From the NCBI GenBank assembly GCA_017608345.1, contig JAFCGA010000001.1, positions 97,766-161,765 on the forward strand: a stretch of DNA of 64,000 nt. Direction: 5' to 3'. Position 1 is the stretch's first letter; each line of letters begins with the position of its first letter. The notes under the pieces are model-generated. The model saw only the letters and a list, made by a program, of their open reading frames with translations, ran no database searches and had not been told where the DNA came from. The translations under genes and the position numbers were made by a program. Origin of the DNA: Candidatus Pacearchaeota archaeon. Its GTDB lineage: Archaea; Nanobdellota; Nanobdellia; UBA10117; JAFCGA01. Below, piece after piece: positions 9,216 through 52,500 of the stretch.

Positions 9216-11963
9216 ATGACTGAAGACTTTAACTATGATGATATTTTTGCTCAAGTAGATCGAGAAAATGAGCAAGAGTCGGGACTTCGCGGTGAATGCG
9301 ATGATAATGGTTGTACTCCCTTATTTAATAAGCAAGGAAAGTACGTTGGATATGAGGATTCCGCGGGCAAGGTTCATTATGATAGCTTACATAAACAGCG
9401 AGGACGGCGAAACGTAGCATATGATTACGGTGCTAGAAAGCGGCTCGAAGAGAGAGCGCGCCGCCAGAAAATACGCGCGAGTCTCAAACCAGTAATAAAG
9501 AAAGTTAAATTAGCAGATAGGGATACAATTGAAGCAGAGACGATTCATCTATCTGCAAAAAATAGTAATTCGGTAATTGTTAATGATGCTGAGACTCTCG
9601 CCAAATTAGAAGAGGAATTTGAAGGTGTATACGCAGGATTTAATGGTTTCGGCGTGTTTGATATATCTGACGGTCGCCTAGATGAATTTGAAGAATTCGC
9701 AAAAGAACACAAACTAAAAGTATATCCTTTCCCATTAGCTACTTATTATCTAACTGAATCAAATTTTCGTAGCAAGCTAGCTGCACCAGCAGGTAATCAC
9801 AAGTATTGCATAATTGAAGAGCTGGACTTAGAAGATATGATCTTCTTTGATAAGGTGGTAAATAGAGAACTAATTGAAACTAATCTGAAGGGAGGAATAG
9901 ATTTACTAATCTCCACATGCAAATATATCGGATTCGACGATAGTACTGTCGCAGATTTAATTAACCAATTCAATCCCGAGATAGATAATACTCTCTTAAA
10001 CTACATCTTAGAAGAAGAAATTGGTGAATTCTTGGAAAATCGCCTCGATCTTCGAGCTAAATTAGAAACTGCAAGGAGAAAATGCTCAAACAGAGATGTA
10101 GCTAAATTAATCACTATAACGAATGACTCCGACCTTATTCAAGTTAAAGAAGAAATAATTGCGGGATTGCACACTAACGAGGAAATTGTGAATCATTACA
10201 TCAAACTGCAAACAAAAGGAGATAAACGTAAAATAAATTATCAGAAATCAGTGGATTTTTGGGATAACCTTGATCACAGAATAAGGAGTATGTGCAAAAC
10301 CGGTATAGTCCGCGGCAAAATAAAAGAGCTAGATCTAATCTCTAGTAGTAATAAATATCAATTAGATAATTTCCTAAGCAATAATCCTGAGATAAAACAA
10401 CTCTTCGAAGACAAAGCCATGGATTATTATGATTATAAAGCTCAGATTCTACTCAACTTAGATAAAGTAGATCTTGATATAACAAAGTCTTATCAAAAAG
10501 TTCAAAATGCCCAGAAAAGATTGAAGACTGCTCGAACTACCTTCGAAACTAAATTAAAACATAGCAACGAAAATTATGTTCCATTAAAACGGAGATTAAA
10601 TAGTTTAAAGTATTACTCAAAAGATGAAAACGCATCAGAAATCAAAGAGATAGAGCAACAAATAAAAAAGATTCAACTTACTGAACCAGCCTTATTTAAA
10701 AAACACGAAGATGCTAAATTTAAGATCCATCAATTGAAGCGGAGTTATGAGAACCTATTAGCAGATTCTAATCAATTACATGCCGCCCGGTGGGGCGAAA
10801 ACGAGAATACTTATCTTATTACTGCACTATTCGAAAATCGCATCTTGCTAACAGAAGAGCTAGATCAATCTTTCTTCTCGGAACTTGAATCCAAGCACTC
10901 TGCTTCAGAACTAATTAGAATACTTCCAGAACTAATTAGAGATTATAAGCCTCTAACGCTGGAAGACCTCGCCACAGATTCAGTAGACTCTGCCAAGAAA
11001 CAAATAAGTCAGATTTCCAATAAAGTTAAAGAACTATATGATAGAAAGGAGCTTATATTCAATAACATGCAGTGGAAGCGAGTAAAGCCAATGGTTTCAG
11101 CAGGATTAAGAACATTGCAAGGCAGATTAGATCGACTAATTTCTTTTGAAGATCGCAATAAAGATCGTTTTAGTGAAGCAGAAAATCTAAAAGGATATTA
11201 CTATTCTGGAGAGAGCAATGATAACTTAATCGAACATCATGATGAAATAAGCTTCCGAATAAAACAAATAGTAGCTGAGATTAAGCAACCAACGCCAACT
11301 AAAAAGGACGATGAAGATAAAAAGATTAGCATCGACAGTCGAGTAAGACTCGGAGTATTATCCAAGCTATCTTATTTAGATAAATTAATACAAGATCAGT
11401 CAAAACTATTCCATCAAGGAAGCAATCTCGTTAGGAATATAAGCAAATCCTTGCATAATCGTGATTACCTAGAGCTTCACTGGGCACAGGGTAACAATAC
11501 CTTCTACGTCAGTAAGGGAAATAAATATGCTGAATTAGAAGAACGCGGAGATGCCTGCCCAATGGGTTTAAGCAAGAACTGGTATACACCTAAGATAAGA
11601 TTCTTATCTAGTGGAATAGAGTTCTCCCAGCATTATTTCAATAACTTAGAAAATAAAATAATAACTGGGGAAGAAAAACCCGCTAAGATTGAATTCAAGG
11701 ATTATGATAATAGTTTTATCTTGCATTTAAAAGATAATCGTTCGGTTAGCCTGTCATTAAAGCATGCAGATGAATTACTAACACATATAGAAACCTACGC
11801 AATTGATGCGCTCCAGATAAGCTCCGCGAATAAGCAGAGTACAGGAGCTACTCCGACGATAGAGTATGATAGTGAGTTTATTAAACTAAGTGGTGAAAGT
11901 GATGTGGAATATAATTTATTTCACACTTACTCACGACTAAAAGAAGCTGTTGCTAATTGTTAA
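9216..11963 (+). CDS. large hypothetical protein (915 aa), Lys/Glu-rich with a probable coiled-coil
   Basis: A 2.7-kb uninterrupted ORF with no recognisable catalytic motif. Confidence 0.6.
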   Translation: MTEDFNYDDIFAQVDRENEQESGLRGECDDNGCTPLFNKQGKYVGYEDSAGKVHYDSLHKQRGRRNVAYDYGARKRLEERARRQKIRASLKPVIKKVKLADRDTIEAETIHLSAKNSNSVIVNDAETLAKLEEEFEGVYAGFNGFGVFDISDGRLDEFEEFAKEHKLKVYPFPLATYYLTESNFRSKLAAPAGNHKYCIIEELDLEDMIFFDKVVNRELIETNLKGGIDLLISTCKYIGFDDSTVADLINQFNPEIDNTLLNYILEEEIGEFLENRLDLRAKLETARRKCSNRDVAKLITITNDSDLIQVKEEIIAGLHTNEEIVNHYIKLQTKGDKRKINYQKSVDFWDNLDHRIRSMCKTGIVRGKIKELDLISSSNKYQLDNFLSNNPEIKQLFEDKAMDYYDYKAQILLNLDKVDLDITKSYQKVQNAQKRLKTARTTFETKLKHSNENYVPLKRRLNSLKYYSKDENASEIKEIEQQIKKIQLTEPALFKKHEDAKFKIHQLKRSYENLLADSNQLHAARWGENENTYLITALFENRILLTEELDQSFFSELESKHSASELIRILPELIRDYKPLTLEDLATDSVDSAKKQISQISNKVKELYDRKELIFNNMQWKRVKPMVSAGLRTLQGRLDRLISFEDRNKDRFSEAENLKGYYYSGESNDNLIEHHDEISFRIKQIVAEIKQPTPTKKDDEDKKISIDSRVRLGVLSKLSYLDKLIQDQSKLFHQGSNLVRNISKSLHNRDYLELHWAQGNNTFYVSKGNKYAELEERGDACPMGLSKNWYTPKIRFLSSGIEFSQHYFNNLENKIITGEEKPAKIEFKDYDNSFILHLKDNRSVSLSLKHADELLTHIETYAIDALQISSANKQSTGATPTIEYDSEFIKLSGESDVEYNLFHTYSRLKEAVANC

Positions 11964-16418: not shown

Positions 16419-16796
16419 ATGGGACATACGAGAGGAATAAGCTTCACTGTATCTTTCCCCACATTAGCTAGACTCACAGAGATACCGCAAGAACTCTCTC
16501 AAAGACATGGAGCTATTGATCTAATGAAAGTCATTGGTGAAGAAACACAGGAAATATATGCGTTAGAGAATATGATATTAAATGCTATTTATAGTCCAGT
16601 AGAGCAAGTAAGGACTGAAATCCATAATGCTATTGATCTCTGTCTTTTGGGCACAGTTGAAGATGTAATTATCCGAGATAGACGAATATTTCTAAGTCTA
16701 CAAGCAGAAGGTGCACCTAAGAAGCTAGCTTACTTATGTGATATTCCCAACGAATATATGGATAAAACACAGTATTCTTATGCATCGCAAGTATAG
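16419..16796 (+). CDS. hypothetical protein (125 aa)
   Basis: ORF only; its 3' end overlaps the convergent radical SAM gene by 19 nt. Confidence 0.35.
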   Translation: MGHTRGISFTVSFPTLARLTEIPQELSQRHGAIDLMKVIGEETQEIYALENMILNAIYSPVEQVRTEIHNAIDLCLLGTVEDVIIRDRRIFLSLQAEGAPKKLAYLCDIPNEYMDKTQYSYASQV

Positions 16797-17875
16797 CAGT
16801 GGTTCTTTAGCTTACACGTCGATACAGTTCCGGACATTATTCCCTCTAGATTTTCGATGAACCACTTAAATTCTCGGTCGTGAAAGTTAGTTAGCTCAGC
16901 TTTTACTTGCGAGTAAGGCTTAGTGAAAAGATTAGAAATAATTGAGTGGTTGCAATTTACTGCTTCGAATGAAGCGCACAAATTTAGATCTCCGTTCGGC
17001 TCGATAATAATTCCCGGCCATTTTACTAAATCCGGACAGACGTATTCACTCATGGCTGCTTCGAACTGCTGAGTATAAGCATCAAGTATTCCTTGATTAG
17101 ACAAATATTGCTCAAATCTTCCGAAGGGATAAACTCGCGTGTCAATTGGCGGAATTATTATTTCGATAGCTTTTGTTCCTAGACTGGTTGAATACTCCGT
17201 ACGGTCGTTGATAACATCAAGGTGAACTCCTTCGAATATGGTTCTCTGATTGCCCCAGAAGGTGTTCTCTACCTCTTCTGCTCGCGTAGGGTTCTGCTGA
17301 GAGTAAATGTCTCCTAACAAGGAGATTAATATTTTATCTGAGAACTCCATTGAATTTCTTATCGACTGATTGAATGCCTTTGCTAGCTTTCCAGTATCTA
17401 ACTTATCGTAGTAATGGTGGTACGTTAGCATAATTTCTATGCTGACTTCGCGTTCGATTGAGAATTGCGCTAGCTTATCGATTATCGATGTGTGCTTATT
17501 CTGAAGCCCGAAGGCTAATGTGAATTCATTGATTCCATTATCATACAGAAACTCAAGAATATCAACTATGTCGTGTCCTTCAGAATTATAGATTAAAGGA
17601 TTTCCTCGCCGCCCGAAGTCAACAACGGAGAATATTTTCAGAAACTCGGGGTCGATTGAAGTAAATGAGCTATAGCTCATAACTTCTCCAGCCATATTTG
17701 AATCTGCAACACAATGTAAGCAGGAATGCTCGCACTGATTGCTCGGGGAAATAATCAGTCGTGGGTTTTCAGCGAACAAATCAGATATTTCGGTTACTTC
17801 AGTTGTTAAGTCTGCTTGCGCTCTGAGAACTGTCTGATAGATGGTTTGTAGTTCTGCAGGCGATAAAGAACTCAT
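16778..17875 (-). CDS. radical SAM enzyme with a SPASM/twitch-like C-terminal cysteine domain (putative peptide maturase)
   Basis: It has CEHSCLHC (CX3CX2C) and a GGE-like GRRGNPL. The C-terminus has CPDLVKWPGIIIEPNGDLNLC (C-x14-G-x4-C), VNCNH and STCKLKNHCYTC (C-x5-C-x2-C). Confidence 0.8.
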   Translation of the reverse strand: MSSLSPAELQTIYQTVLRAQADLTTEVTEISDLFAENPRLIISPSNQCEHSCLHCVADSNMAGEVMSYSSFTSIDPEFLKIFSVVDFGRRGNPLIYNSEGHDIVDILEFLYDNGINEFTLAFGLQNKHTSIIDKLAQFSIEREVSIEIMLTYHHYYDKLDTGKLAKAFNQSIRNSMEFSDKILISLLGDIYSQQNPTRAEEVENTFWGNQRTIFEGVHLDVINDRTEYSTSLGTKAIEIIIPPIDTRVYPFGRFEQYLSNQGILDAYTQQFEAAMSEYVCPDLVKWPGIIIEPNGDLNLCASFEAVNCNHSIISNLFTKPYSQVKAELTNFHDREFKWFIENLEGIMSGTVSTCKLKNHCYTCDA

Positions 17876-17876
17876 T

Positions 17877-18242
17877 TTATAAATATCTACAAGGATTTAT
17901 CCCGCCACGACTCAAGCTCATTCTGTACATCCTACAGGGATTTATTCCTCCGCGCGGCGTCAAGTCTCGCATTAACACCTCTAATGATCGGTCCAATTCC
18001 AGCTCTATCCGAGTATCCATTAGGTTTAGCCCCTTCTTTGATATAGTGTTATCTTCTTCTAACACGCCCCTCTGATGCAAGTAATTGACAATTGTATCAT
18101 ATTGTTCCTCTGGGAAAGACTCTTTTGGGGGTAATGCTTCTTTTTGTTTCAGCAAATGGTAGAAATTACCGAATGTGCGTGAATCTATTTCGAGGCGCTT
18201 TAACTCATCCTCAATCGTTAACCTACGCTCTAGTCTCGGCAT
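17877..18242 (-). CDS. precursor-like protein B (121 aa) ending in 2x RGGINPCR
   Basis: The C-terminus is ...TPRGGINPCRMYRMSLSRGGINPCRYL*. The stop lies 1 nt from the rSAM ATG. It is a paralog of the upstream ORF. Confidence 0.55.
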   Translation of the reverse strand: MPRLERRLTIEDELKRLEIDSRTFGNFYHLLKQKEALPPKESFPEEQYDTIVNYLHQRGVLEEDNTISKKGLNLMDTRIELELDRSLEVLMRDLTPRGGINPCRMYRMSLSRGGINPCRYL

Positions 18243-18661
18243 GGTGCAAAACCCCCCGTACTTCCTAAGTATCTATCTTGGCAAGGCGCGAATCCGCCAG
18301 AGTTCCCGGAGAGTACTCTGCTTCTAGCTCTAAACCTATTTTGTTGTTCCATATTTATTTCTCGCTGTCTTTCCAATACCTCCTCCCAAAGCTTATCCTC
18401 TAAGTCATAACGAGCCTTAAATAATTTAGCTGCATCGGGAATTAAGTTTCCATTATCCGCAATTACGTTACTGCTTCTCAGGTAAGCTACAATTGCGTTG
18501 TATTCTCTCACAGACGTTAATTTCGAGATTATGGATTCACACGGAGGGAGCTTTTCTTTAGCTGCTAATTCAGTATAAAAAATCTCGAAGTGATCTACAT
18601 TTATTTCTAGCGCTGTTAGTTTATATAAAATCGTTTTTCTTGCTTCTTCGGGCAATATCAT
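18230..18661 (-). CDS. precursor-like protein A (143 aa) ending in 2x GGFAPC(Q/R)D
   Basis: The C-terminus is ...SGNSGGFAPCQDRYLGSTGGFAPCRD*. It overlaps the next ORF by 13 nt. The N-terminal ~100 aa are paralogous to ORF 17877-18242. Confidence 0.55.
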   Translation of the reverse strand: MILPEEARKTILYKLTALEINVDHFEIFYTELAAKEKLPPCESIISKLTSVREYNAIVAYLRSSNVIADNGNLIPDAAKLFKARYDLEDKLWEEVLERQREINMEQQNRFRARSRVLSGNSGGFAPCQDRYLGSTGGFAPCRD

Positions 18662-18687: not shown

Positions 18688-19536
18688 TTACATATCCGCC
18701 ATTACTGGCTTGTCTGCTATGAACTTACAAAGTAGATTAAGCTTTTTAAAGTATTTGCACATCTCCATGCATGCAAATTTCTCTGTTGAATAATGTGTTC
18801 CGCCGAGAATACTAATTCCTTCTTGCTTTGCAAAGTCATGAGCTTTCTGCGAGTACTTATTCTTTATTGATATCCCAGTTATATGTAAATTTACTCCTTC
18901 CTTCGCGACTTCCTTAAGCAAATCTATATCATTTCCGCCGCCAGGAATAACTGAAACCAAGCCGTCTTTTATTTCGCTAGCTCCATAATTATATAATTCA
19001 GTTCTGTGTCCGATCGCTTCCTCGAATTTCTTCTTTAATTCTTCAATAGTTTTGCACTTTGTTTCCCCGATCACTCCAGATAACGAACCAAAATAGTGTG
19101 CAAACGCCTTCTTAGGTTTAATTCCAAGCGCTTTTGCTAGACTTACTCCGGTTGAATATGGACCATAATTATCGAGCGGAACATGAAGGTTATATATTGA
19201 AATTCTGTTTTCTCTGAATTTTTCGAGCAGCTTTCTATCCATTTGATAAAAAGCTGGATCTTTCCTTACATCCCAGATAGATGGATGATGAACAAAAAGC
19301 ATAGCGTCCTGTGTACCTTTATCTAAAATCTCCTTCATTACTTTCTTCGAAGGAAAGACAGCTGTATAAACTCGATTTATCTCTTCTGCGAAGTCGCAGA
19401 CTAAACCCATTGATCGCTTCTTAAAATTCTCGCTAAGAAAATCTGCGACAGAATCCATATATTTTGCCCACTCATCACTTAGTCCCGGATTTATGAAATC
19501 CTTTTCTAGCTGCGCGTAGAGTTTAGTTGCTTTCAT
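18688..19536 (-). CDS. NIF3-family dinuclear metal centre protein (GTP cyclohydrolase I type 2 homolog)
   Basis: MKATKLYAQLEKDF..., VHHPSIW, LHVPLDN and GGTHYSTEK are typical NIF3/YbgI blocks. Confidence 0.8.
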   Translation of the reverse strand: MKATKLYAQLEKDFINPGLSDEWAKYMDSVADFLSENFKKRSMGLVCDFAEEINRVYTAVFPSKKVMKEILDKGTQDAMLFVHHPSIWDVRKDPAFYQMDRKLLEKFRENRISIYNLHVPLDNYGPYSTGVSLAKALGIKPKKAFAHYFGSLSGVIGETKCKTIEELKKKFEEAIGHRTELYNYGASEIKDGLVSVIPGGGNDIDLLKEVAKEGVNLHITGISIKNKYSQKAHDFAKQEGISILGGTHYSTEKFACMEMCKYFKKLNLLCKFIADKPVMADM

Positions 19537-19910
19537 GTACTGATGCTACCCTTTGCGTCCCTAATAAGAACCTCTAAGCGATTAGGATCATCAATGTTGC
19601 TTCCCCTTTCCATTAAGAGTACATCGAGTCCAAAATAGCTGTATTCTCTTATTGCTCTTGAGGCAGTGTCAGAGAGATACGAAAGCAGAGTATTTGTGCA
19701 CCTGAATATCTCTCCGTCATGAGGCGAATATTTCGGGATAAAAGTATCTCGATAAAAATCAATAAATATCTGACCGCTATGGATTAGTCTCTCCTCGCGT
19801 TTCTTTATTCTTCCCAGATCCGAAGACATTGGCTCGTGCCTTGGATGCAGTTCTAAATAACGCTTACTCAAATCTTCTAAATCAGATACTAATGCAGCTA
19901 ATTGATTCAC
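19533..19910 (-). CDS. hypothetical helical protein, tandem paralog B (126 aa from the GTG at 19910)
   Basis: The GTG start sits in the same GTGAATCAATTAGC context as paralog A. (M)[20 protein letters not shown]... aligns with paralog A along its whole length. Confidence 0.5.
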   Translation of the reverse strand: MNQLAALVSDLEDLSKRYLELHPRHEPMSSDLGRIKKREERLIHSGQIFIDFYRDTFIPKYSPHDGEIFRCTNTLLSYLSDTASRAIREYSYFGLDVLLMERGSNIDDPNRLEVLIRDAKGSIST

Positions 19911-20287
19911 TGTACCGTCACCCCCGCTTTTGCTCTTTCGATAAACTTTTCTAGAACAGTTGGCTCGCCAATAAAAGAACTTTTCGTACACATCAGAACA
20001 CCTAATGCAAAATAGTTAGAATTACTTGCTGCTTCTGCGGCCTTTTGAGAAAGACCTAAAAGTAAATCCTTCGCCTCGCGGAAAATTGGTCCCTTCTCGG
20101 GAGCGTATCTCTGTTTGAAAATACTTTGATAAAAATCAATGACTAACTCTCCACTTTCTATCAGCGGATCCTTAATTAGATGTAGCTGTCCGATCGAGGG
20201 AGCGGCATCCATTGCAGAATTCAGAAGACCCAAATAAGTCTTATTAAGTTCCTCCAAATCCTCGATAAGTTCAGCTAATTGATTCAC
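19907..20287 (-). CDS. hypothetical helical protein, tandem paralog A (126 aa)
   Basis: The GTG start overlaps the cyclophilin stop (GTGA). The sequence is [21 protein letters not shown]...[27 protein letters not shown]. Confidence 0.5.
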
Positions 20288-21000
20288 TCTACCGTCACCT
20301 TCTCCATCACAATCGGCTCTAGCGGTCGATCCATTGGGCCAACTTCAACACTTCCAATTGCCATTAGCACGTCCTCGCCTTCGATTACATGACCGAAAAC
20401 TGCGTGTTTGTTGTCTAGCCAGGATGTTGCGGCGAGAGTTACGAAAAATTGACTGCCACCAGTGTTAGGGCCAGAATTAGCCATTGATAAAATTCCGGCT
20501 TTGTCATGTCCTAAGTCAGGATGGAATTCATCCTCAATTGAGTAGCCTGGGCCGCCTGTGCCATCGCCGTTTGGATCTCCGCCCTGAATCATAAAGTCTT
20601 TGATAACTCGGTGGAATACCAAGCTGTCGTAGTATCCCTTCTGAGCTAGATCAATAAAATTCTGAGATGTTTTAGGCGCTTTTTCAGTTTCTAGCTGGAA
20701 CTTCATAGTTCCTTTGTTTGTTTCGATAGTTACTATTCCTTTCATGTTAGTTTCCTCAGTTTCCCCAATAGGTTCTTCTATTCTCGCGGGTACTATATCT
20801 TCTTCTGTCAGAGGCTCAGTATCAGGAGCTTCTGGTTCCGACGTGTCTGCCTGCTCTCCATCTTGATCTTCAGTTTTAGCTGAATCCGTTGACTCTATTG
20901 CTCCTTTATCTCCTGCGAATACAAAATAAACCACGCTGCTGATAAGAGCTATTGCAATAATAGCGATTATTATTTTAGTGAGCTTTTTCATGAGCATCAA
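20284..21000 (-). CDS. membrane-anchored cyclophilin-type peptidyl-prolyl cis-trans isomerase
   Basis: An N-terminal TM helix and acidic linker precede [15 protein letters not shown]...GGPGY...[17 protein letters not shown]...[11 protein letters not shown]. Confidence 0.85.
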
Positions 21001-21634: not shown

Positions 21635-24376
21635 ATGCTAACACCCCCGCTAGAAGAAATACTTTCGAACTCGGCAGTTAAACTAAGAGAACAATTACTG
21701 ATACCAGAGATAGAAGTATTTGATGAGATATATACGAAAGTTCTATCTGAATTTAGAGCAGATATTAAGCTTGCTCAAGCCGAGAATAAGCTAGCTAAAT
21801 CAAGTGCTTTGCAAATAAGACAGCTTAAGCTTAGTGATCTATCTGAGAGTAAGGAAGAAATCTTAGAAACAATCGTCGGAGAAGAAGTAAATTACACTTC
21901 GTTCGAATATTCAGATCCGCCCGAGGGAGAGAAACTCGTATCAGTATTCATGCCAGTAAAGAATGGACGCGGGAAAATACTAAGATCTCTCTTCGGACTC
22001 AAAAAAGAACTTGACGCGCTAGACAAAAACGGATTCGAATACATAATTAATATTTGCATCAATAACACGCAAGATGGAACGCTAGAACGCGTATTAAAGT
22101 TCAAGCAGTTGTTTCCTCAAGCACCGCTCAATATTTATGAACTAGATAAGGAAAGTTTGCGAGCAACTGGAAAGATATATTCCCTGAATCTTTTGTATAC
22201 GCTACTAAAAAATAATATCAGTTCTGGAGAAAATGTCTACATTCATGTTGCAGACGATGATATTGGTTATCCCAAACCAACAAGCGGGATACTGTCAAAC
22301 ATTCAGGAGTTGCAGAATAATGACTCGCTAAAAGCCATTTGTGGCACATATACTACTAGCAAATCCACTGAAGGATTTCATTTTCTAAATTCAATTAGGA
22401 AAGATCGCGGAATTCTCGCTAAGGTTGGTCCATTGCCACAAGTTTATGGTGGCGCATTAACTATTAATTTTCAAGACTTCCCTGCAGAAGGTCTACCGCC
22501 AGATACTTCTTTTGATTGCTTTATTACGCTATACTATCTCAAGGATAAAATAACTAATATTGGCGCTTTAATTGAAAATCCCGAGGACTTACCAATCAGA
22601 ACAAATCCTGAATTCCTAATCGAGCATCCCGAAGAGCCGGCTTTCGCAAAATTTGTATGGCGCTTTTTGAGAGATGTAGACTGGAGAAAAAAGAGTGCAG
22701 AACAGCTTGGCGGCGATAAACTCGAAACAGAATTTCTAAAATTAAGACGGACACTATACGACAAAATAACGCAGACAATAGAAGAATTACCAAATACAGA
22801 TCCGCGGAAAATAGGTCAGAAGTGGTTAAGATTAATTAGAGATGAAGTATATTCACAGCGAGATTCTGGAGAGTTAACTCGAGAGCTTGTTGTTCCGCTA
22901 CTCCAAGACGGAAGTTCTGCAGATGAGCAAGCATTCTGCCATAGTTTAATAAAAGATATTCCGCGGTTTAATAGCACGTTAGAGCTGCTTGCACAAAATA
23001 GCTACTTCGATACTAATTCCCTCACTGAACTGTCTAAGCCCGAGTTAACCGAGAAAGTCAAATTCAAACACATTGAACGAGCAATTAATAAAAATAAAGA
23101 TCATCTCAGGGAGAATAATTGGTTAGGAGATCCGACAATTTATTTATTAGACTCGATTATCGAAAGAACATTATCACAACGGGAGCTATTATGTAAAGAA
23201 ACTACCTTAAGAGCAATATTCGAAAGAGCAGATATTAATTTAGGAAAAGACATAAATATCGAAAGACATGAAGCGCTCGGAAATTGCAATTTCTCTTTTT
23301 TCATAGAATCAGATGGACAAAAATATTTCTTAAGATATCATGATCCGTTAGGATTCAGATGGTTTCAGCGGCATACTCCGCGTAAAACAACTTACTTCAG
23401 CGTTTTGTGCGAGGAGATTTTCGGAGAATTGCTCGGAAAGGAAGCTGTCATCGGGACAATCTTTCCTAGCCTTGAAACAGCTGCAGATAACTACTTCGGA
23501 CTCGAGGAAACAAATCCAATTGAGAAGATCGCCCAGAGAGTACTGATTCAGAAAGACATTCGTAAGGACTATACTGAACTTATAAATTACTGTGAACTTG
23601 GTCTTGATTTACATCAAGCTACAGAGATATATGCTAGCATTCTTGCAGAGTATCATGGAAAATCCTTGGGAATAACAAAATATTTCCGAAACTCAGAGCA
23701 TAGTGACAAGAAATTTATGAAACTATTAAACCTAGCGGGAGAAGATATAAGATTCTCAAATGCAGCTAGCTATCAAACTTGGTTATGTGGTCCGAACTGG
23801 GTCACTCGAATATTTAATTCCTTAGAAGATGAATTCCATCGAGATAATCAATTTTATCATTGCGTTAAATCAATGCTCAACGAAGCAGACGTGGACATAT
23901 CTAACAAATTCTCTGAGGTTTGCACCCGATCTGTTAAGAGATTTGAAGAAGGCTCACTCGGACATCTTGATTTTAAACTAAATAATCTGTTTGTTAATCA
24001 AAACAATACTCTGGATCGAAAAATATACGATTTTGACCATATAACTTTCTTAGATCCAATGTATGAAGCAGGACATAGTATATATTCGCTAGTTAAACAT
24101 GCACTGCTAGCAGAAAATGCAAATGCAAATGAGCTCCTCGAGCTAACTGAGACTTTTAACAACACATATTATTCTCAATTTCAGCATCAGCTAGAGATCG
24201 GAAACTTTGCGGGTAAAAAGCAAATAATTACTTCAGCGAATCTACTGGCAGACTCAAACTTCTTTGCTGGAATAACTCTCTTATCCGTATTTGCTTCAGA
24301 GTATAAGAATTATAATCTATCTCCAGGTCAGCTGGAATCAATCAAGCAAGTATGCTATGCGTTACTAAAACAATGA
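21635..24376 (+). CDS. fusion protein: N-terminal GT2-like glycosyltransferase plus C-terminal APH/choline-kinase-like phosphotransferase
   Basis: VSVFMPVKNGRG...ICINNTQDGTLE...HVADDDI resembles GT-A/GT2. HLDFKLNNLFV...IYDFDHITFLDPMYEAG matches the HxDxxxxN...DFD kinase catalytic and activation motifs of the APH/ChoK family. Confidence 0.55.
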   Translation: MLTPPLEEILSNSAVKLREQLLIPEIEVFDEIYTKVLSEFRADIKLAQAENKLAKSSALQIRQLKLSDLSESKEEILETIVGEEVNYTSFEYSDPPEGEKLVSVFMPVKNGRGKILRSLFGLKKELDALDKNGFEYIINICINNTQDGTLERVLKFKQLFPQAPLNIYELDKESLRATGKIYSLNLLYTLLKNNISSGENVYIHVADDDIGYPKPTSGILSNIQELQNNDSLKAICGTYTTSKSTEGFHFLNSIRKDRGILAKVGPLPQVYGGALTINFQDFPAEGLPPDTSFDCFITLYYLKDKITNIGALIENPEDLPIRTNPEFLIEHPEEPAFAKFVWRFLRDVDWRKKSAEQLGGDKLETEFLKLRRTLYDKITQTIEELPNTDPRKIGQKWLRLIRDEVYSQRDSGELTRELVVPLLQDGSSADEQAFCHSLIKDIPRFNSTLELLAQNSYFDTNSLTELSKPELTEKVKFKHIERAINKNKDHLRENNWLGDPTIYLLDSIIERTLSQRELLCKETTLRAIFERADINLGKDINIERHEALGNCNFSFFIESDGQKYFLRYHDPLGFRWFQRHTPRKTTYFSVLCEEIFGELLGKEAVIGTIFPSLETAADNYFGLEETNPIEKIAQRVLIQKDIRKDYTELINYCELGLDLHQATEIYASILAEYHGKSLGITKYFRNSEHSDKKFMKLLNLAGEDIRFSNAASYQTWLCGPNWVTRIFNSLEDEFHRDNQFYHCVKSMLNEADVDISNKFSEVCTRSVKRFEEGSLGHLDFKLNNLFVNQNNTLDRKIYDFDHITFLDPMYEAGHSIYSLVKHALLAENANANELLELTETFNNTYYSQFQHQLEIGNFAGKKQIITSANLLADSNFFAGITLLSVFASEYKNYNLSPGQLESIKQVCYALLKQ

Positions 24377-35602: not shown

Positions 35603-37288
35603 CTATAATCTCTGTGCTGTTCCAGCGCGTAGTTTAAGCGTAACAGGTATTGTTTCTATATATATATAGTTATAATCTATATCTGCAAGCGCAGTGAGCG
35701 TTTGATAGGGCGCACCGCCGAGGTATTCATCATCTACATAAAAATTCAGATAAACTACTTCACTCTTCCCTACTTCGAGTGGTCGCAAATATTCTCGAAG
35801 ATAGCTCTCAGATAATTCATAGTGCTGCAACTTAGGGTACTGATTTCCGGCTACATAAGTCTGTCCAGTTTTTCTAAATTGGCTTCCCGTGCTAACTGCA
35901 GTCACATGTTTTGCAGGCAATACTAAAGTAAGGCTATTAATCGACAACTGATTACTAAAATCCCCAGATTTAAACGCAATCCCTAAATCTTGTCGGTATG
36001 TTGAAGTTGGCTCGTTTTCAACTGCAGGCAAGAAACTATCTGAAGGGTTCCCGCTGGAAAATACACTAGTAAGAAAATCCTTTTTCGAAACTCTTGCCAA
36101 ACCCATTGACAAGTCAATTGTTTTTCCATCGCTAGCTACGTGCGCTTTAGTCTGATCCGCAGTTATTTTAAAGCGATCTGCTGGATTGCCAATATACGAA
36201 GCAGTATCTGTAACAAATAGATTCTTAGAAACTTTCGCACGCGTATTGTGAATCAGTTTGAAAGTTACTTCGAAAGTTCGTAATGGCATCTTGAGAAGAT
36301 CAGACGTCCCAAGTGGGGGATGAGTACATGTAAATCGAGTATCACTTATACTGGTAACGGTGAATGAGTTTTCTCCTTCGAAACCAAAAAGCTCGCAAGT
36401 CCAATCATGTGCTAACTCTGGTGCTGTCGCTAACGGATCTGGATCAATTCCTAATGTCAACATTACGTTCTCATCTGCAAAAGTGCTAATCGCATCTAAC
36501 GTACCGCTAATGCGAATAGGATCGCCAGTAAAAAAATCCACTGGTGCGCCCAAATCATGAATTACCACACCTGCACCGTCATTAACTACTAATTCCGAAG
36601 AGATTTCTCCTGAATCCCATTGCTGACCGGGTCCAACAGTAATTGTCTGCCACATGTTACTTAAATGCCCTTTAGCTGGTCGGAATGCGTTCATCAATCC
36701 AACTTTGGTTTCTACTCCTTCACTACCTATTACTCCCCCAATATAAGTTCCTTCAACAGAAGGCGCAATAAAGAAGATATATACTAAATAAAGTATTCCC
36801 AGAACTATCAAAATAAGTAATAAATGTCTAAAGAAATACCCCGTTTTATGTCCTGCTTCAGCAATTTTCGCTCTATGCTCTTCGCCTGCTTGCTTCCATC
36901 CTGAAGCAAGAGATGACTCTCTCATTAACGCCTTTTCCTTAAATTTAGCTAATCTGGTTTGCTCTTTTTCTTCTTTTTCTTTAACTGGAATCTCCCGAAC
37001 TTGCTCTTCTTCTATTACTTCTTCCTCGGGGTCTTCTCTCGGTTTCCCACCAATCCATGCAAGAGCTTTTGTCCTGGCTTTTTCTTTAAATTCACCTGCG
37101 CCAGCTTTTGCTTTTTCTTTAAATTGGCTTGTACTTGCTCTTACTCGTGTCGGTGCATATTTAGCTCTAGCACCGAATGATCTAAATCTTGCTGTAAATT
37201 TAAGTGCGCCATTACACCATACACAATAATTCTGACCCGCTGGTGTTTCTTTTCCACAATGAGGACAAATCTCAGATTTTTCAATCAT
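35603..37288 (-). CDS. zinc-ribbon / single-pass membrane protein with a large extracellular domain (561 aa)
   Basis: An N-terminal CPHCGKETPAGQNYCVWC is followed by a Lys/Glu-rich linker, the TM helix FFRHLLLILIVLGILYLVYIFFI, and ~380 aa beyond it. Confidence 0.55.
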   Translation of the reverse strand: MIEKSEICPHCGKETPAGQNYCVWCNGALKFTARFRSFGARAKYAPTRVRASTSQFKEKAKAGAGEFKEKARTKALAWIGGKPREDPEEEVIEEEQVREIPVKEKEEKEQTRLAKFKEKALMRESSLASGWKQAGEEHRAKIAEAGHKTGYFFRHLLLILIVLGILYLVYIFFIAPSVEGTYIGGVIGSEGVETKVGLMNAFRPAKGHLSNMWQTITVGPGQQWDSGEISSELVVNDGAGVVIHDLGAPVDFFTGDPIRISGTLDAISTFADENVMLTLGIDPDPLATAPELAHDWTCELFGFEGENSFTVTSISDTRFTCTHPPLGTSDLLKMPLRTFEVTFKLIHNTRAKVSKNLFVTDTASYIGNPADRFKITADQTKAHVASDGKTIDLSMGLARVSKKDFLTSVFSSGNPSDSFLPAVENEPTSTYRQDLGIAFKSGDFSNQLSINSLTLVLPAKHVTAVSTGSQFRKTGQTYVAGNQYPKLQHYELSESYLREYLRPLEVGKSEVVYLNFYVDDEYLGGAPYQTLTALADIDYNYIYIETIPVTLKLRAGTAQRL

Positions 37289-37362: not shown

Positions 37363-38526
37363 TTACTCGTTCTTAATCGTAATCTTAAGCTTGCTTATCT
37401 CAGCATCGTCTTCAGCTGACAAAGTTATCTTATTAGTTCCTTCGTGTATCTTCTCGCAAATATCATCCCTTACTTCGCCGCCTTCGAAAGAATATATCTT
37501 AGCATTGGAATTTATGGTAACAGTAATTTTATCTGCGCCGTGATCTTTTAGCAAGTATAGTTCGCAGTCGTACTTCTTTGGTTGGTTAGCGAAGTACATG
37601 TCATCCTTGCTAACTGAAAAATAGTACCGCTCCGCACCTTCTTCGACTGCTAACTCATTAACAGTTACTTCGGCGTATTTCGTGCTATACTTGCCTCCGC
37701 GGTCTGTAGACCAAGTGATTGTATTTGAGCCGTAATTTAATAAATGAGATGGAAGCGCTACAGTAAGATCAGCATCGGGTATTGCGTTAAAGATTTGCTC
37801 GTCATTCAAAGCAATCTCTAGATTAACTCTGCTTCCGAGGGTTTTAATGAGTGCTGTGAGTTTAGCGGTTTCCATGCTTTTAGCAGAATTCTGTGTCAGC
37901 GAGAAATGCTGAGTTGATTCAGTATCGGGATAGTTATCTATCTCAAGGCGGACGTCAGTTAGCCCGTAGGATTTAGTCCGCCATACATCGCTACCGAGGA
38001 TCGATATCCGGATATTATTGACTTCTTCATGCAAGTACATCCTTGGGAAAGCAATATCTAGAGTCTCACCAACACCTGCCGCTCTTGAAAATACAGTATG
38101 CTGGTTAAGGCGTACAGTTAATATTCCATTTCCAACTTTTTCAGATACAGCAAAATGTAGCCTTGCTGAAGAGAACATGTCTGTGTTGATCGAGAAGTCA
38201 TAATCGTTATGCACAGACTTTATTAGACTCTTCGTGATGGTTAGCTGATCGCTAATATACCTGCTCTCGGGCGCCGGAGAATTATCGATGATGGCCCCAG
38301 ATAGCTTAATCATTTTAATACTCGATCGCTCGCTAGCAGGTCTTATTAATCCCGGAGTAGCATCTAGAATTACATTATTATACTCCGCAGTGGGTAAGTC
38401 CGGCAGCTGTCCCTCTCGCCAAGGAGCTGGCACAATCGCGAAATAGCCAACAATTCCTCCCAGCATAATAAGGATAATCGTCATAGCAGCAGTATTTCCC
38501 TTTAGCTGAGCTCGCTTAGACTTCAT
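37363..38526 (-). CDS. membrane-anchored extracellular protein (387 aa)
   Basis: N-terminal anchor AAMTIILIMLGGIVGYFAIV; no recognisable motif. Confidence 0.5.
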   Translation of the reverse strand: MKSKRAQLKGNTAAMTIILIMLGGIVGYFAIVPAPWREGQLPDLPTAEYNNVILDATPGLIRPASERSSIKMIKLSGAIIDNSPAPESRYISDQLTITKSLIKSVHNDYDFSINTDMFSSARLHFAVSEKVGNGILTVRLNQHTVFSRAAGVGETLDIAFPRMYLHEEVNNIRISILGSDVWRTKSYGLTDVRLEIDNYPDTESTQHFSLTQNSAKSMETAKLTALIKTLGSRVNLEIALNDEQIFNAIPDADLTVALPSHLLNYGSNTITWSTDRGGKYSTKYAEVTVNELAVEEGAERYYFSVSKDDMYFANQPKKYDCELYLLKDHGADKITVTINSNAKIYSFEGGEVRDDICEKIHEGTNKITLSAEDDAEISKLKITIKNE

Positions 38527-38712: not shown

Positions 38713-40068
38713 ATGATGGTTCGCCAATCGGAAGTTATTAAGCATTATTCCAATCCGGCGGTTGCTGCTGAGCTAATTAGAGTATCACAAGATCGAGAGG
38801 TTAGTGTTCAACTGCGGAGTAAGGGTTACGGTAAAAGACCCTCAGTGTTGCAGTTTCCAGCTGAAGTCAAGGATCTGGTTAGATCTGGAGCTACTTCGTT
38901 TCATATGTCAGAAGAAAGATGGTCGGATCCTATGCAATTGCGGACAGATATGAATAAACGGGAGCTGAACGATCTTCGTATTGGCTGGGATTTCATAATC
39001 GATATTGATTGTCCTTGGTTTGAATACTCGACTATTGCCGCTTCGGTGTTGCTCGACGCGATTAAACAACATGGAGTGAAAGCTGCCCTTAAATTCTCAG
39101 GTAATCGTGGCTGGCATATTGGAATTCCGTTTGAAGCTTTTCCCGCAGAGATTGGTCGGCGTAAAACTGAATCTCTTTTTCCAGCAATTACTGCTACGAT
39201 TATAACTTACTTAAAGCAGTATACTGAAAGCTCGATGAGCGACAGAATAATTGAATTTGAGGGCAGTGATGTGAAAAATATTCTAAAACGTACGGGTAGG
39301 AAAAAAGAAGATTTTATGGTATCGGGCAAATTAGACATATTCACGCTTATCGAACTAGACCTTGCCCTCAGCTCCTCACGGCACTTGATAAGAGCACCGT
39401 ATTCAATACACGAGAAGACTGGTCTTATTTCGATTGTTATTGATCCGGATAAGCTGAACTACTTTAAGCGAGAGCATGCTAAACCTGAAAATATAGCGGA
39501 AATTAATGACTCTTTTCTAAATCCTTCAAAGATTGCGGCTGGTTCTGCTTCGCAATTATTGACGCAGGCTCTTGATTTTGAAGCACAAGAGAAAAGTAAA
39601 GCTAATTCTGAAAAAGTTACTGTGGAGTTCGAGCCGTTCGAAGGCAAGGTGCCCAAAGAGAAATTTCCTCCGTGCGTAAAGAATATACTAGCAGGACTAG
39701 AAGACGGTCGTAAAAGATCATTATTTGTTTTGATGAATTTCTTAAAGTCGGTCGGCTGGCCTTGGCCAGATATTGAAAATGAGGTCAGAGAATGGAACTT
39801 AAAGAACAAGCCGCCGATGAAAGACGGCTATCTTAATAGCCAGCTAAAATGGTCCAAGCAACAGAGTTCGGTGTTTCCTCCACCTAATTGCGCAGATGTT
39901 GGCCACTACAAAGATACTGGAATCTGCAAGCCAGACAAGTTCTGCGAGAAAATCAAGAATCCGCTGACGTATGTGAAAAGACAGCTAAGATTTAGTGCTA
40001 CTCAACCTAAACGTAGAAAAAAGAAGAAGTCAGAAGCTCCAGTAAAATCAGCACCAATAAAAACGTGA
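38713..40068 (+). CDS. archaeo-eukaryotic DNA primase, fused PriS-like catalytic domain plus PriL-CTD-like domain
   Basis: WDFIIDIDC and FSGNRGWHIGIPF are PriS catalytic blocks. The C-terminal FPPCVKNILAGLEDGRKRSLFVLMNFLKSVGW resembles the PriL Fe-S domain PPC(M/I) helix region. The tail is basic. Confidence 0.7.
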   Translation: MMVRQSEVIKHYSNPAVAAELIRVSQDREVSVQLRSKGYGKRPSVLQFPAEVKDLVRSGATSFHMSEERWSDPMQLRTDMNKRELNDLRIGWDFIIDIDCPWFEYSTIAASVLLDAIKQHGVKAALKFSGNRGWHIGIPFEAFPAEIGRRKTESLFPAITATIITYLKQYTESSMSDRIIEFEGSDVKNILKRTGRKKEDFMVSGKLDIFTLIELDLALSSSRHLIRAPYSIHEKTGLISIVIDPDKLNYFKREHAKPENIAEINDSFLNPSKIAAGSASQLLTQALDFEAQEKSKANSEKVTVEFEPFEGKVPKEKFPPCVKNILAGLEDGRKRSLFVLMNFLKSVGWPWPDIENEVREWNLKNKPPMKDGYLNSQLKWSKQQSSVFPPPNCADVGHYKDTGICKPDKFCEKIKNPLTYVKRQLRFSATQPKRRKKKKSEAPVKSAPIKT

Positions 40069-49546: not shown

Positions 49547-52500
49547 ATGAAAAAGGCAATTAAGAAAGTAATATCTATAATTATTATAGCTGCAGTGTTT
49601 ATTTTAGTAGTACCAATCATAACTGCAGGTGCAACTGAGGCAAGTATTGTTGTAAGTGAAGTTCAAACAGATAGTACTGTTGGTGCAGGAGGCACAGCAG
49701 ATGATTGGGTCGAACTGTATAACCCAACAGATTCTGCGGTGATTTTAGATGGCTGGTCAATCCAAGAAGGATTAAGTGATGGATCTTCTTTTTATCGGAA
49801 AGAACTAATTGGAACAATCCCCGCACAGGGTTATTTCTTAATCGTTAGAAGTGATGCAGATTCTTCACTAACAGACCTAGCGGATGTAATTGCAGCAACT
49901 AGTTTTTCGCTAACAGACGATAATGTTATTTATTTAGTTAATAATAATGAAGATATTACTGGTGCAGATGATCCAGATATTGTTGATTTAGTTGGATTTG
50001 GAGATTCTACCATTTTTGAAGGCACTGGCACTGCAGCTAATCCTGCTGAAAGTGGAAGCATAGAAAGAAAATCTGGAGAGATTCATTCCGAAGGAAAGGG
50101 AAATGGATGGGATAGTAATGATAATTCTGCTGACTTCTTTGTCTCAACTCCAAATCCACAGAATACGGCGAGCACTTCTGAAGCGCCGCCGCTAGACGTC
50201 TGTAAGACAGGATGTGTTTATTCAACAATCCAATCTGCAATAGACGCTGCAACAGAAGGAGACACAATTAATGTTGCTGCTGGGACTTATACTGAAGACC
50301 TAACAATTGATATAGGAATTACTATGTCTGGTTCAGACGCGTCGGAAGTAACTGTAAATGGTGAACATACAATATCTTCAGACGATGTAACTTTGGAAGA
50401 AGTTACTTTTAATATAGCTGCAGATACTGCAGGAATATTAATTGATTCATCTTCTTCTACAATAAATAATATTATAATTACAGATTCTGTTTTTGATTTT
50501 CCAAGTAATCCGGGAACCGGAGTTGTAGGAATTATACTTGGTGGATATTCTTCACCAAATAAGGTATCAAATATATATATCAACAATAACGTATTCAATG
50601 GACCGGATAACAAAAACTGCAATCCTTGGAAAATCGGTGGAGGATTCGGTAGCCCGGTCTCTTGCGAAGTTCAAGACGTAGACTTTGAAAATAACGCTGT
50701 TGATAGATGTTCAACGCCAATAAATTTACAGGATAGTAATATTGATGACCTTTTAATAAATAATAATGTATATACAAACACAGACGGAGTTCTATATGTA
50801 TGGGCTCAAGATGGATCAGCACCATCCGGAGCTTTGTCTAACTTTGTATTTACAAACAACGATGTTGATTCTACGAATTCTTATGGTGTAGCTTTCTTCG
50901 ATAATGATCTAAATGGAGATACTTTTACCGATACGAACTTCGGAACAGGCAATAGGATCAATAATAATGAATTCGTCGGAATTACTGAAACATATGGATT
51001 AAAATCTCTTAGCATGCTAGCAGATCTAACTACTTATGAATTAGATGCAGAAAACAACTGGTGGGGCTGCAATGAAGGTCCTGGAGAAGCTGGCTGTGAT
51101 GCGGTAAGTGGAACTGTTGATTACACTCCATGGACAGTTCAAGCTGAAGACACTATCTCAACTACTAATGGAATAGCAGAAACAGTTGATACAGCTGGAA
51201 CAGCCGCGGGACTCACTATAACTACCATCGGAGATCAATCAGGAACAGTAACTATCCAGCAATCTAGCGAAGAATATCATGGCGGATTCGGAGCTACAGC
51301 ACTCGGAAAGTTCATCAATATTGAATCAACAATAGCTAATGAAGATATCTCCGAAGTTGAGATAAGAATTAGTTATACTGATGATGAGCTTACTGCAATC
51401 GGACTAGATGAAACTTCTCTGAAGCTATACTGGTGGAATTCTGCTAGCGAAGCATGGGAACTTCTAGGAAGTACGGGTGTTAATACAACTGGAAATTATG
51501 TGTGGGCCATCACAAACCACTTCAGCGATTTTGGAGTTGGGGGTGACCCAGATACTGACGCGCCAGTTATAACTGATGTTTACACTTCACCAAAATACGC
51601 TAGTCTAGCTGATAAGCTAGTGACAATATTTGCTACAATTGCAGATGGTGGAAGCGGAGTGAAACATTCTTTCTTATATTATCAAATCGGAGACGAAGAT
51701 TTACAAAATATTACTTTCAGTGGTCCACTAACTGGCGGAAGCGCGGGAATATTCCATGGAAATCCTCAAGATGGAATTGTAGTAAATTACCATATTAATT
51801 CTACAGATAATGTAGATAACAGCGCAAGATATCCTGGCTCGGGCTGGCTAAGCTATACTTATGATGGCACAGATCCAGTCACAACCTTGACAATCGACGA
51901 TCCGAAATACGGCTCGACATTCATTAGCTCTTCAACAAGTATCGAGCTAAGCTGCACTGATGCGACTAGCGGCTGCAACAAAACATACTATCGCATTAAT
52001 GAAGGTAGCGTTACTGAATATACTACTCCTTTCACCGTCGCTAATGAAGATGGAGATCATACAATACATTATTACAGCGTAGATAATGCAACAAATGAGG
52101 AAAACTCAACACCGGAAGTAATAACTCTAGATAATAGCGCCCCAATCACCACAGATAATGCAGCAAGTGATTGGCAAGGCGCCGACCTAGTCGTAGGTCT
52201 TACACCAACAGATGGCTCAGGAAGCGGTGTAAACATTACTAAATATTGTGTTGACACAACCGGAGCGTGTACTCCAGCTACGCAAGGTATTTCTGCATCA
52301 GTTACCTGCGCTGCAGATAGCGTTTGTGAAAGTCAATATGTAAATTATCAATCGCAAGACAATCTTGGACAATGGGAAACTGCGCATATGTCAAGTATAA
52401 TTAAAATAGACAAAGAAAAGCCAGATACAACCGACGATGCTTCGAGTGATTGGCAAAATACGAATGCAACTGTCTCTCTTACCTGCGAGGATCATGAAGC

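Follow-up and report, generated by a model that had tools for sequence, protein, structure and literature searches.

The pairing of a precursor with a radical S-adenosylmethionine (SAM) enzyme is already known from the sactipeptide and ranthipeptide systems, among them CteB/CteA (SCIFF), SkfB, ThnB, and PapB/PapA. In these systems a small open reading frame (ORF) lies directly upstream of the gene of a radical-SAM-type enzyme, Cys-bearing modification sites are located in the C-terminal core of the precursor, and the enzyme carries a CX3CX2C motif as well as an auxiliary-cluster element CX9-15GX4C; PapA also contains repeated short Cys motifs. The same layout, with putative modification sites that resemble the repeats of PapA, is present in a 64,000-nucleotide (nt) stretch of DNA from Candidatus Pacearchaeota archaeon (contig JAFCGA010000001.1, positions 97,766 to 161,765), referred to here as the window. 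Two paralogous small proteins encoded there, ORF-A and ORF-B, each end in two GGxxPC units, and the gene that follows encodes a candidate radical-SAM-type enzyme of 365 amino acids (aa). The units are kept by purifying selection and the gene pairing recurs in other genomes. We consider it probable that the enzyme acts on the repeat units of the two substrate proteins, in a new cassette that resembles those of RiPPs (ribosomally synthesised and post-translationally modified peptides).

The three genes are tightly packed on the minus strand in the order ORF-B (18230..18661, 143 aa), ORF-A (17877..18242, 121 aa), and the enzyme gene (16778..17875, 365 aa). Both small frames are taken from the ORF list and are putative precursor or substrate genes, ORF-B on the basis of its alignment with 24 orthologous precursors, ORF-A on the basis of the same alignment and of a structural model. 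They are paralogs that share 33% identity (BLASTP, E 5e-14), and ORF-B consists of a helical N-terminal domain, a variable linker, and two C-terminal GGFAPC units. ORF-B and ORF-A overlap by 13 nt (18230..18242), with the ATG of ORF-A placed on the last Cys codon of ORF-B (ATGC), and the ATG of the enzyme gene lies 1 nt after the stop codon of ORF-A (17875..17877). Such an overlapping and abutting layout suggests that translation of ORF-B, ORF-A, and the enzyme gene is coupled.

Codon reading on the minus strand places unit B1 (GGFAPCQD, residues 122-129 of ORF-B) at 18275..18298 and unit B2 (GGFAPCRD, residues 136-143, at the very C terminus) at 18233..18256. In ORF-A, units A1 and A2 are both RGGINPCR and comprise residues 97-104 (17931..17954) and 112-119 (17886..17909). 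An earlier note, made from the letters of the sequence, had listed the codons of these repeats and placed them at 17886..18298; every codon was reproduced for both ORFs, and the coordinates are the exact span of all four units. The two units of ORF-A read CGC GGA GGA ATA AAT CCC TGT AGG and CGT GGC GGG ATA AAT CCT TGT AGA and differ at 5 of 24 nt, each of these differences being in a third position and synonymous. The units of ORF-B differ at 7 of 24 nt, comprising six synonymous third positions and a CAA/CGA (Q/R) exchange. When an equal number of random substitutions was placed in unit 1 of ORF-A, the peptide was kept in 0.05% of the simulated trials, and for ORF-B, with the same number of substitutions placed at random, at most one amino-acid change resulted in 0.02% of the trials.

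The immediately downstream gene, which lay beyond the view of the earlier note, co-occurs with ORFs of this kind throughout its family. A total of 34 loci with enzyme homologs were compared, 27 from metagenomes and 7 from GTDB genomes, the latter being labelled as Woesearchaeota (three), 'uncultured Methanosarcinales' (two), 'Methanobacteriaceae' (one), and 'uncultured archaeon' (one). Precursors were gathered from the DNA beside the enzyme homologs, because a precursor profile search of a set of 5.8 billion proteins returned only four. In every locus that includes DNA upstream of the enzyme gene, an adjacent ORF on the same strand, 112-146 aa long, aligns with ORF-A and ORF-B, and 24 of these ORFs end in two units (three in locus L003) of the form [ST]GG[ILMVF]xPC[R]. 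The conserved adjacency of a short precursor gene and the gene of a modifying enzyme, a feature of RiPP cassettes, is present in this family, and the cassette is seen in about 30 related contigs of archaea, most of them from Woesearchaeota. The orthologous precursors are diverged (28-45% identity) and are not assembly duplicates. Two tandem precursors, as in the window, are present in two loci, L020 among them, and L039, reached via its enzyme P0040, bears the same kind of precursor. In L002 the precursor (L002:1267-1635; GGLMPCN and GGLMPCR) is downstream of the enzyme gene, with 97 nt of upstream DNA covered, so that a second, upstream copy is possible. The precursor of L031 has only one unit, in which Leu replaces Pro (GGFALC).

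A divergent clade of the enzyme, approximately 425 aa long and with an N-terminal extension of approximately 60 aa, is paired with precursors that lack the N-terminal domain and carry two to four units. There are four units, arranged as two adjacent pairs, in L035 (3538-3975), two in L036 (2089-2349), and three in L007 (3198-3560). Since these precursors keep the units in the absence of the domain, it is the units, and not the N-terminal domain, that track the enzyme. The possibility that the extension of the enzyme is a fused precursor N-terminal domain was considered and rejected (hhalign probability 1.9%). More distant relatives of the enzyme were likewise rejected as users of the same substrate: the genes neighbouring P0080 (profile E 1.8e-37) are without GGxxPC, and the motif is therefore confined to the core family.

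Altogether, 61 units in 29 proteins were tabulated, with G, G, and C being fixed by the pattern used to collect them. Position 3 is taken by I, L, M, V, or F and position 4 varies; P occupies position 5 in 55 of the 61 units, and R comes directly after Cys in 47. The alignment of the 24 precursors provides a measure of conservation that is independent of the search pattern: three of the four Gly positions are invariant, and the fourth Gly, as well as both P-C pairs, are conserved in at least 90% of the sequences. Successive units of a pair are spaced by 11-19 residues, and in most precursors the last unit, with its Cys, is located 1-2 residues from the C terminus.

The way in which these sequences have diverged indicates selection on the peptide. 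For the pairs of GGxxPC cores within each of 24 family members, the proportion of synonymous differences (pS) is 0.53 and that of nonsynonymous differences (pN) is 0.08, corresponding to a dN/dS ratio of about 0.09. Between orthologs, with the values for each region pooled over all pairs, pN is 0.19 in unit 1 and 0.17 in unit 2, compared with 0.44 in the N-terminal domain, 0.60 in the spacer between the units, and 0.67 in the linker, and pS is saturated (0.62-0.71) in every region. No other part of the gene is as constrained as the units, and the intervening sequence is near neutral. In the codons of the invariant G, G, P, and C residues, third positions differ between the units of one protein at a frequency of 0.43-0.46, close to the baseline of 0.51 for different proteins, and this excludes a recent duplication or a constraint at the level of DNA or RNA. 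The earlier note had proposed that the short peptide units are themselves the object of selection, and not the product of a recent duplication or of a nucleic-acid element; the near-random silent divergence, the empty Rfam scan, and the low pN of the units agree with it in both respects. The comparison with orthologs that it suggested gave the pattern it had anticipated, with the frame and the motif preserved in the 24 precursors of other loci, the C-terminal units more constrained than the N-terminal domain, and the number of units varying (one, two, three, or four per protein) as the sequence of the motif is kept. In our reading, the selection acting on the units is explained by the radical-SAM-type gene that adjoins them.

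The two variable residues of the motif (GG-x-x-PC) are a further matter. In 13 of 24 proteins both are shared by the two units, compared with 2.6 expected by shuffling (P < 1e-5), and after removal of close relatives the matching pairs are 10 of 20, with 1.6 expected. Matching is seen in the window and in L006, L008, L009, L011, L020, L022, L023, L025, and L035. The specificity of the enzyme alone cannot explain it, because proteins or pairs that are served by one enzyme carry different residues, IN in ORF-A versus FA in ORF-B, and LL/LL versus IS/IS in the pairs of L035. Nor was recent gene conversion accepted as the only cause of identical units, since proteins with identical units are as diverged at silent sites of the invariant codons (0.43) as those with non-identical ones (0.455, Fisher P 0.84); the variable codons of matched units differ silently too, as in TTC GCG and TTT GCA. 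At the level of DNA, units are near identical in L016 and L025 (0 of 18 positions different), as well as in L018 and L022 (1 of 18), and those of L016 and L025 look recently homogenised. The matching can be read either as the result of homogenisation that occurs now and then and of purifying selection acting long afterwards, or as the result of selection that directly keeps the two units the same. Why the units of one protein must match, given that their silent sites are randomised, is a separate evolutionary question.

The model of ORF-A calculated with AlphaFold2 (AF2) from an alignment of five sequences has residues 10-94 folded as three helices, a hairpin, and a long helix, with a predicted local distance difference test score (pLDDT) of approximately 90. 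The tail that carries both units (residues 95-121) is predicted to be disordered (pLDDT < 50), as is expected of a core region. A conserved N-terminal domain, a neutral linker, and constrained units are observed in the family, the N-terminal domain being absent in one clade, and these parts may correspond to a leader and a core. Neither precursor reached any family at threshold in Pfam, NCBIfam, or PADLOC, and profile searches of PDB sequences with the precursors returned only noise.

The 365-aa protein is similarly hard to place by sequence. No Pfam, NCBIfam, or PADLOC family was reached at threshold, and no PDB sequence was matched even when the protein was searched as a profile, which gave only noise. 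The PADLOC searches also provide no match to anti-phage defence for the enzyme or for either precursor. Its 58 close homologs are all without annotation, the nearest being only 57-59% identical, and the few that are named come from metagenome-assembled genomes of Candidatus Woesearchaeota. A profile search of 1.84 billion representative proteins places 83 clusters in the family at E <= 1e-3 and 32 at E <= 1e-30. A viral origin was considered and rejected, with no relative found in IMG/VR.

The assignment of this protein is based on its homologs, its pattern of Cys residues, the AF2 model, and the Foldseek comparison. Residues C48, C52, H54, and C55 (CX3CXHC) are invariant in 24 diverse homologs and conserved in at least 90% of the sequences of a larger alignment that includes fragments. 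Three of them form the radical SAM motif CX3CX2C (CEHSCLHC, residues 48-55; 17711..17734, minus strand), in which C48, C52, and C55 presumably hold the [4Fe-4S] cluster that binds SAM. By definition, the SPASM/twitch motif begins with the element CX9-15GX4C (PMC6231123). In the model of the enzyme this element is found on a hairpin that follows the barrel, as C280-X14-G295-X4-C300 (CPDLVKWPGIIIEPNGDLNLC; 16976..17038, minus strand), and C280, G295, and C300 are invariant across homolog alignments of 24-53 sequences. The full seven-Cys SPASM motif (CX2CX5CX3C ... C), which serves two auxiliary clusters, is not found in the enzyme. Only C354-X5-C360 (CKLKNHC; 16796..16816, minus strand) follows, and C360 is absent from several homologs; the C-terminal domain would thus be at most twitch-like, with a single cluster. 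C354 is invariant in the alignment of 24 homologs and conserved in at least 90% of the larger one with fragments, and the three residues C280, C300, and C354 are predicted to suffice for a single auxiliary Fe-S cluster whose fourth ligand would be free or variable.

The AF2 model of the enzyme, calculated from an alignment of 53 sequences (pLDDT 91, predicted TM-score 0.89), comprises six β/α units, as well as a β-hairpin between C280 and C300 (strands 286-291 and 296-298). A Foldseek search of the PDB with this model yields radical SAM enzymes at the top of the list, namely DesII (E 1.6e-5), viperin, and HydG, with probabilities of 0.96-1.00. Matches below threshold point in the same direction. 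Radical_SAM (PF04055) is matched by 5 of the 53 family members, at E of at least 0.037, with the protein of the window itself unmatched; DUF3641 is matched by 18 of 53, and SPASM (PF13186) by 6 of 53, with a best E of 0.016. The ArsS family (TIGR04167) is matched by 40 of 53, always via the C280-C300 region. Distant relatives of the enzyme reach Radical_SAM at E of 1e-5 to 1e-3, still under the gathering threshold of 29.5 bits. We conclude from these motifs and from the predicted fold that the protein belongs to a radical SAM clade that is small and very divergent and that has a putative twitch-like domain for one auxiliary cluster.

A candidate ORF on the plus strand (16419..16796, 125 aa, with no family match) is convergent with the enzyme gene, overlapping its 3' end by 19 nt.

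A possible course of the reaction can be outlined from these elements. The four units would be the modification sites, or core motifs, in a minimal operon that consists of precursor B, precursor A, and the enzyme. In each precursor, the folded N-terminal domain of approximately 85 aa may serve as a leader or docking module, followed by the freely evolving linker and by the disordered tail with two copies of [ST]-G-G-[ILMVF]-x-P-C-R. In the enzyme, the CX3CX2C cluster site would be located on a partial β/α barrel, and the twitch-like C-terminal domain would hold the auxiliary cluster. The substrate Cys is known to ligate the open site of the Aux I cluster of CteB (PMC8172795), and by analogy with sacti-/ranthipeptide synthases of this kind, the auxiliary cluster would first take up, at its open site, the thiolate of the invariant Cys of a unit. 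Hydrogen abstraction by the 5'-deoxyadenosyl radical would follow, at a carbon of that unit, for which the invariant Gly-Gly, four to five residues upstream of the Cys, is the most attractive acceptor. Finally, a thioether ring would close, once per unit. Direct observation extends to the pairing of the genes, the conserved motif, the purifying selection that the units are under, and the features that liken the enzyme to radical SAM proteins; from these we infer that the units are acted on by the enzyme in the first place and that the Cys is the reactive residue. Thioether chemistry specifically, an argument from analogy, we hold with roughly half the confidence given to an action on the units.

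Several observations weigh against an enzyme acting on these peptides. No sequence model of a radical SAM, SPASM, or peptide-maturase family reaches its threshold with the enzyme, and the TM-scores of the Foldseek matches with DesII, viperin, and HydG are only about 0.3-0.42. Moreover, these top matches are enzymes acting on small molecules, with no peptide maturase near the top of the list. The precursor of L005 (L005:5563-5943) has lost the Cys residues of its units (GGWDPD ... DGFDPV) and the enzyme beside it, P0034, appears intact; the cassette may be in decay or have taken on another purpose. All-against-all clustering of the ORFs located within 4.5 kb of the enzyme gene found only the precursor and enzyme families to be conserved, with no protease, exporter, or RiPP recognition element (RRE)-type partner among them. 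For this reason a released and secreted natural product is not indicated, and the product may be a modified small protein. As to the chemistry, which is pure analogy, the sequence data would fit other radical reactions directed at Cys or Gly equally well.

The same observations have to be weighed under other explanations of the locus. In one of these, which we regard as unlikely, the small proteins act as regulators with a winged helix, or as partners of the enzyme, and not as its substrates, their Cys tails sensing redox state or metal, or binding metal or an Fe-S cluster, with the enzyme acting elsewhere. The N-terminal domain of ORF-A can be described as winged-helix-like from its predicted order of helices and hairpin, and its nearest neighbours in Foldseek are winged helix-turn-helix (HTH) proteins of the MarR type; at E 0.4 and a TM-score of 0.43 this similarity is not significant, and membership in a known HTH family was not accepted. 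Pfam gives a weak match of the precursor to HTH_67 (E 0.004). Paired Cys residues in a flexible tail could chelate a metal, and the lack of a conserved protease or exporter would be natural for a regulator. This explanation does not account for the precursors of the divergent clade, which have dispensed with it and still keep two to four units beside the enzyme, nor for the tighter constraint on the units than on the domain (pN 0.17-0.19 versus 0.44) and the range of one to four units per protein. Additionally, invariant Gly-Gly and Pro placed around one Cys are not known as the signature of a metal site.

It is also conceivable, if improbable, that the precursor is a carrier or donor, either of sulfur or persulfide or in the manner of the cofactor precursors of mycofactocin and PQQ, its tail being consumed or turned into a small redox-active product. 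In mycofactocin the modification site is C-terminal, and the location of the last unit close to the C terminus in most members of the present family is reminiscent of it. A cassette of two genes in reduced archaeal genomes, with no export functions, would suit such a role, as would the twitch-like character of the auxiliary-cluster domain. To have two to four identical sites in one protein would be unusual for a cofactor precursor, no conserved peptidase or additional tailoring gene is found near the enzyme, and no similarity to the models of MftA/B/C or PqqA/D/E was found.

The invariant GG found directly before each short unit may recall the double-glycine leader cleavage site of bacteriocin-like peptides, at which a C39-type peptidase/transporter would free short xxPCR peptides, with the enzyme being incidental; this is very doubtful, since none of the neighbourhoods has a conserved C39 peptidase or ABC exporter, the GG occurs again within what would be the product, and nothing but the enzyme gene is conserved beside the precursor. 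The view that the repeats arose by a recent duplication of DNA, that they reflect an element of DNA or RNA read in a different frame, or that they occur in the ORFs by chance is already refuted by silent divergence near the baseline with a dN/dS of 0.09, by the frame and motif kept in 24 orthologs with no Rfam match, and by random substitutions that reproduce the pattern in no more than 0.05% of trials, the few members with near-identical unit DNA (L016, L025, L018, and L022) pointing to occasional homogenisation.

The reading in which the enzyme modifies the units can be extended, tentatively and with little confidence, to an unrecognised archaeal class of modification, with a radical SAM clade that is invisible to sequence models acting on paired GG-hydrophobic-x-P-C-R units that selection keeps identical because they cooperate as a pair. 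In that case the product would be a small modified protein used inside DPANN archaea with reduced genomes, not a secreted antibiotic. We can speculate that the paired units might be cross-linked to each other, or might together make up a single symmetric site, for instance a metal centre or a cofactor derived from the protein.

Elsewhere in the window, a second set of tandem paralogous small ORFs is present on the minus strand (19533..19991 and 19907..20287), which share 38% identity over 125 aa (E 2e-28) and have no Pfam or NCBIfam match. They are located upstream of a NIF3-family gene (18688..19536) and downstream of an ORF of 238 aa (20284..21000). As listed, the second ORF of the pair has a GTG start that overlaps the first ORF, and its true start is probably further in. 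The window also includes the small subunit of an archaeal-type primase (38713..40068), and many of its ORFs are without a family match: the large ORFs 9216..11963 (915 aa), 35603..37288, and 37363..38526 have no Pfam match at E <= 1e-5, and ORF 21635..24376 (913 aa) has no match in NCBIfam. The largest of the frames noted is 49547..56050 (2167 aa). The primase subunit and the many unmatched ORFs agree with a DPANN archaeon as the host. Scans of the whole window for tRNAs and with Rfam were both empty.

If the enzyme does modify the units, the cassette would represent a new radical-SAM peptide-modification family in DPANN archaea. Genome mining that relies on the Pfam or InterPro models of radical SAM and SPASM, on RRE, or on known precursors would probably miss it, because neither protein reaches a Pfam or NCBIfam threshold. 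The 61 diverse units would in that case provide natural data on specificity, with positions 3 and 4 tolerated and G, G, P, and C required. Literature searches did not find the unit strings or GG-hydrophobic-x-P-C-R in a relevant context, nor any link of Woesearchaeota or DPANN to such a radical SAM peptide system, nor any archaeal radical-SAM-modified peptide.

Comparison with described systems reveals partial likenesses to several of them. The enzyme differs from those of sacti-/ranthipeptide systems in matching none of their sequence models and no PDB sequence, in Foldseek matches where DesII, viperin, and HydG outrank any peptide maturase, in having no recognisable RRE, and in having only three to four C-terminal Cys residues, with a twitch-like arrangement in place of the seven-Cys SPASM. 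Its precursor has a folded leader domain of approximately 85 aa, and the cassette includes no protease or exporter. When the curated NCBIfam models for radical SAM peptide systems (SCIFF, CbpB, YydG, SkfB, FlmE/OhkG, and others) were searched, the precursors were unmatched, and the enzyme family was matched at E of at least 4.8e-4 and in at most 3 of the 53 members.

The only named families touched by many members are ArsS/TIGR04167 (rSAM_SeCys; 40 of 53) and DUF3641 (18 of 53), in both cases via C280-C300. These matches are far below threshold, with best E of 1e-4 or 7.9e-5 and scores of 10-15 bits compared with cut-offs of 300 and 24.9, and the similarity is limited to the auxiliary-cluster hairpin. 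DUF3641 is the C-terminal domain of a radical SAM subfamily, and ArsS acts in the biosynthesis of arsenosugars, not on peptides.

Anaerobic sulfatase-maturating enzymes (anSME) are likewise radical SAM proteins with auxiliary clusters, and they act on a Cys in a short motif with Pro and Arg that lies in a protein and not in a released peptide; in the present case such an action is putative. The motif itself is different, being P-C-R here as opposed to C-x-P-x-R, and the anSME substrate motif C/S-x-P/A-x-R is not found in the units, since Pro precedes the Cys and there is no conserved Pro or Ala at +2 or Arg at +4. The substrate has no sulfatase domain, and there is no match to anSME in sequence.

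The precursors, in turn, are built like the NHLP/Nif11 proteusins, in that a short core comes after a long, conserved N-terminal part and a hypervariable stretch, and in that several paralogous precursors serve one enzyme. Their N-terminal domain differs in having no detectable homology in Pfam or NCBIfam and in being dispensable in one clade, and their cores are tandem repeats of one unit. In comparison with all of these systems, the absence of processing and export genes, the folded leader, the unit motif, the precursor family, and the enzyme clade appear to be new.

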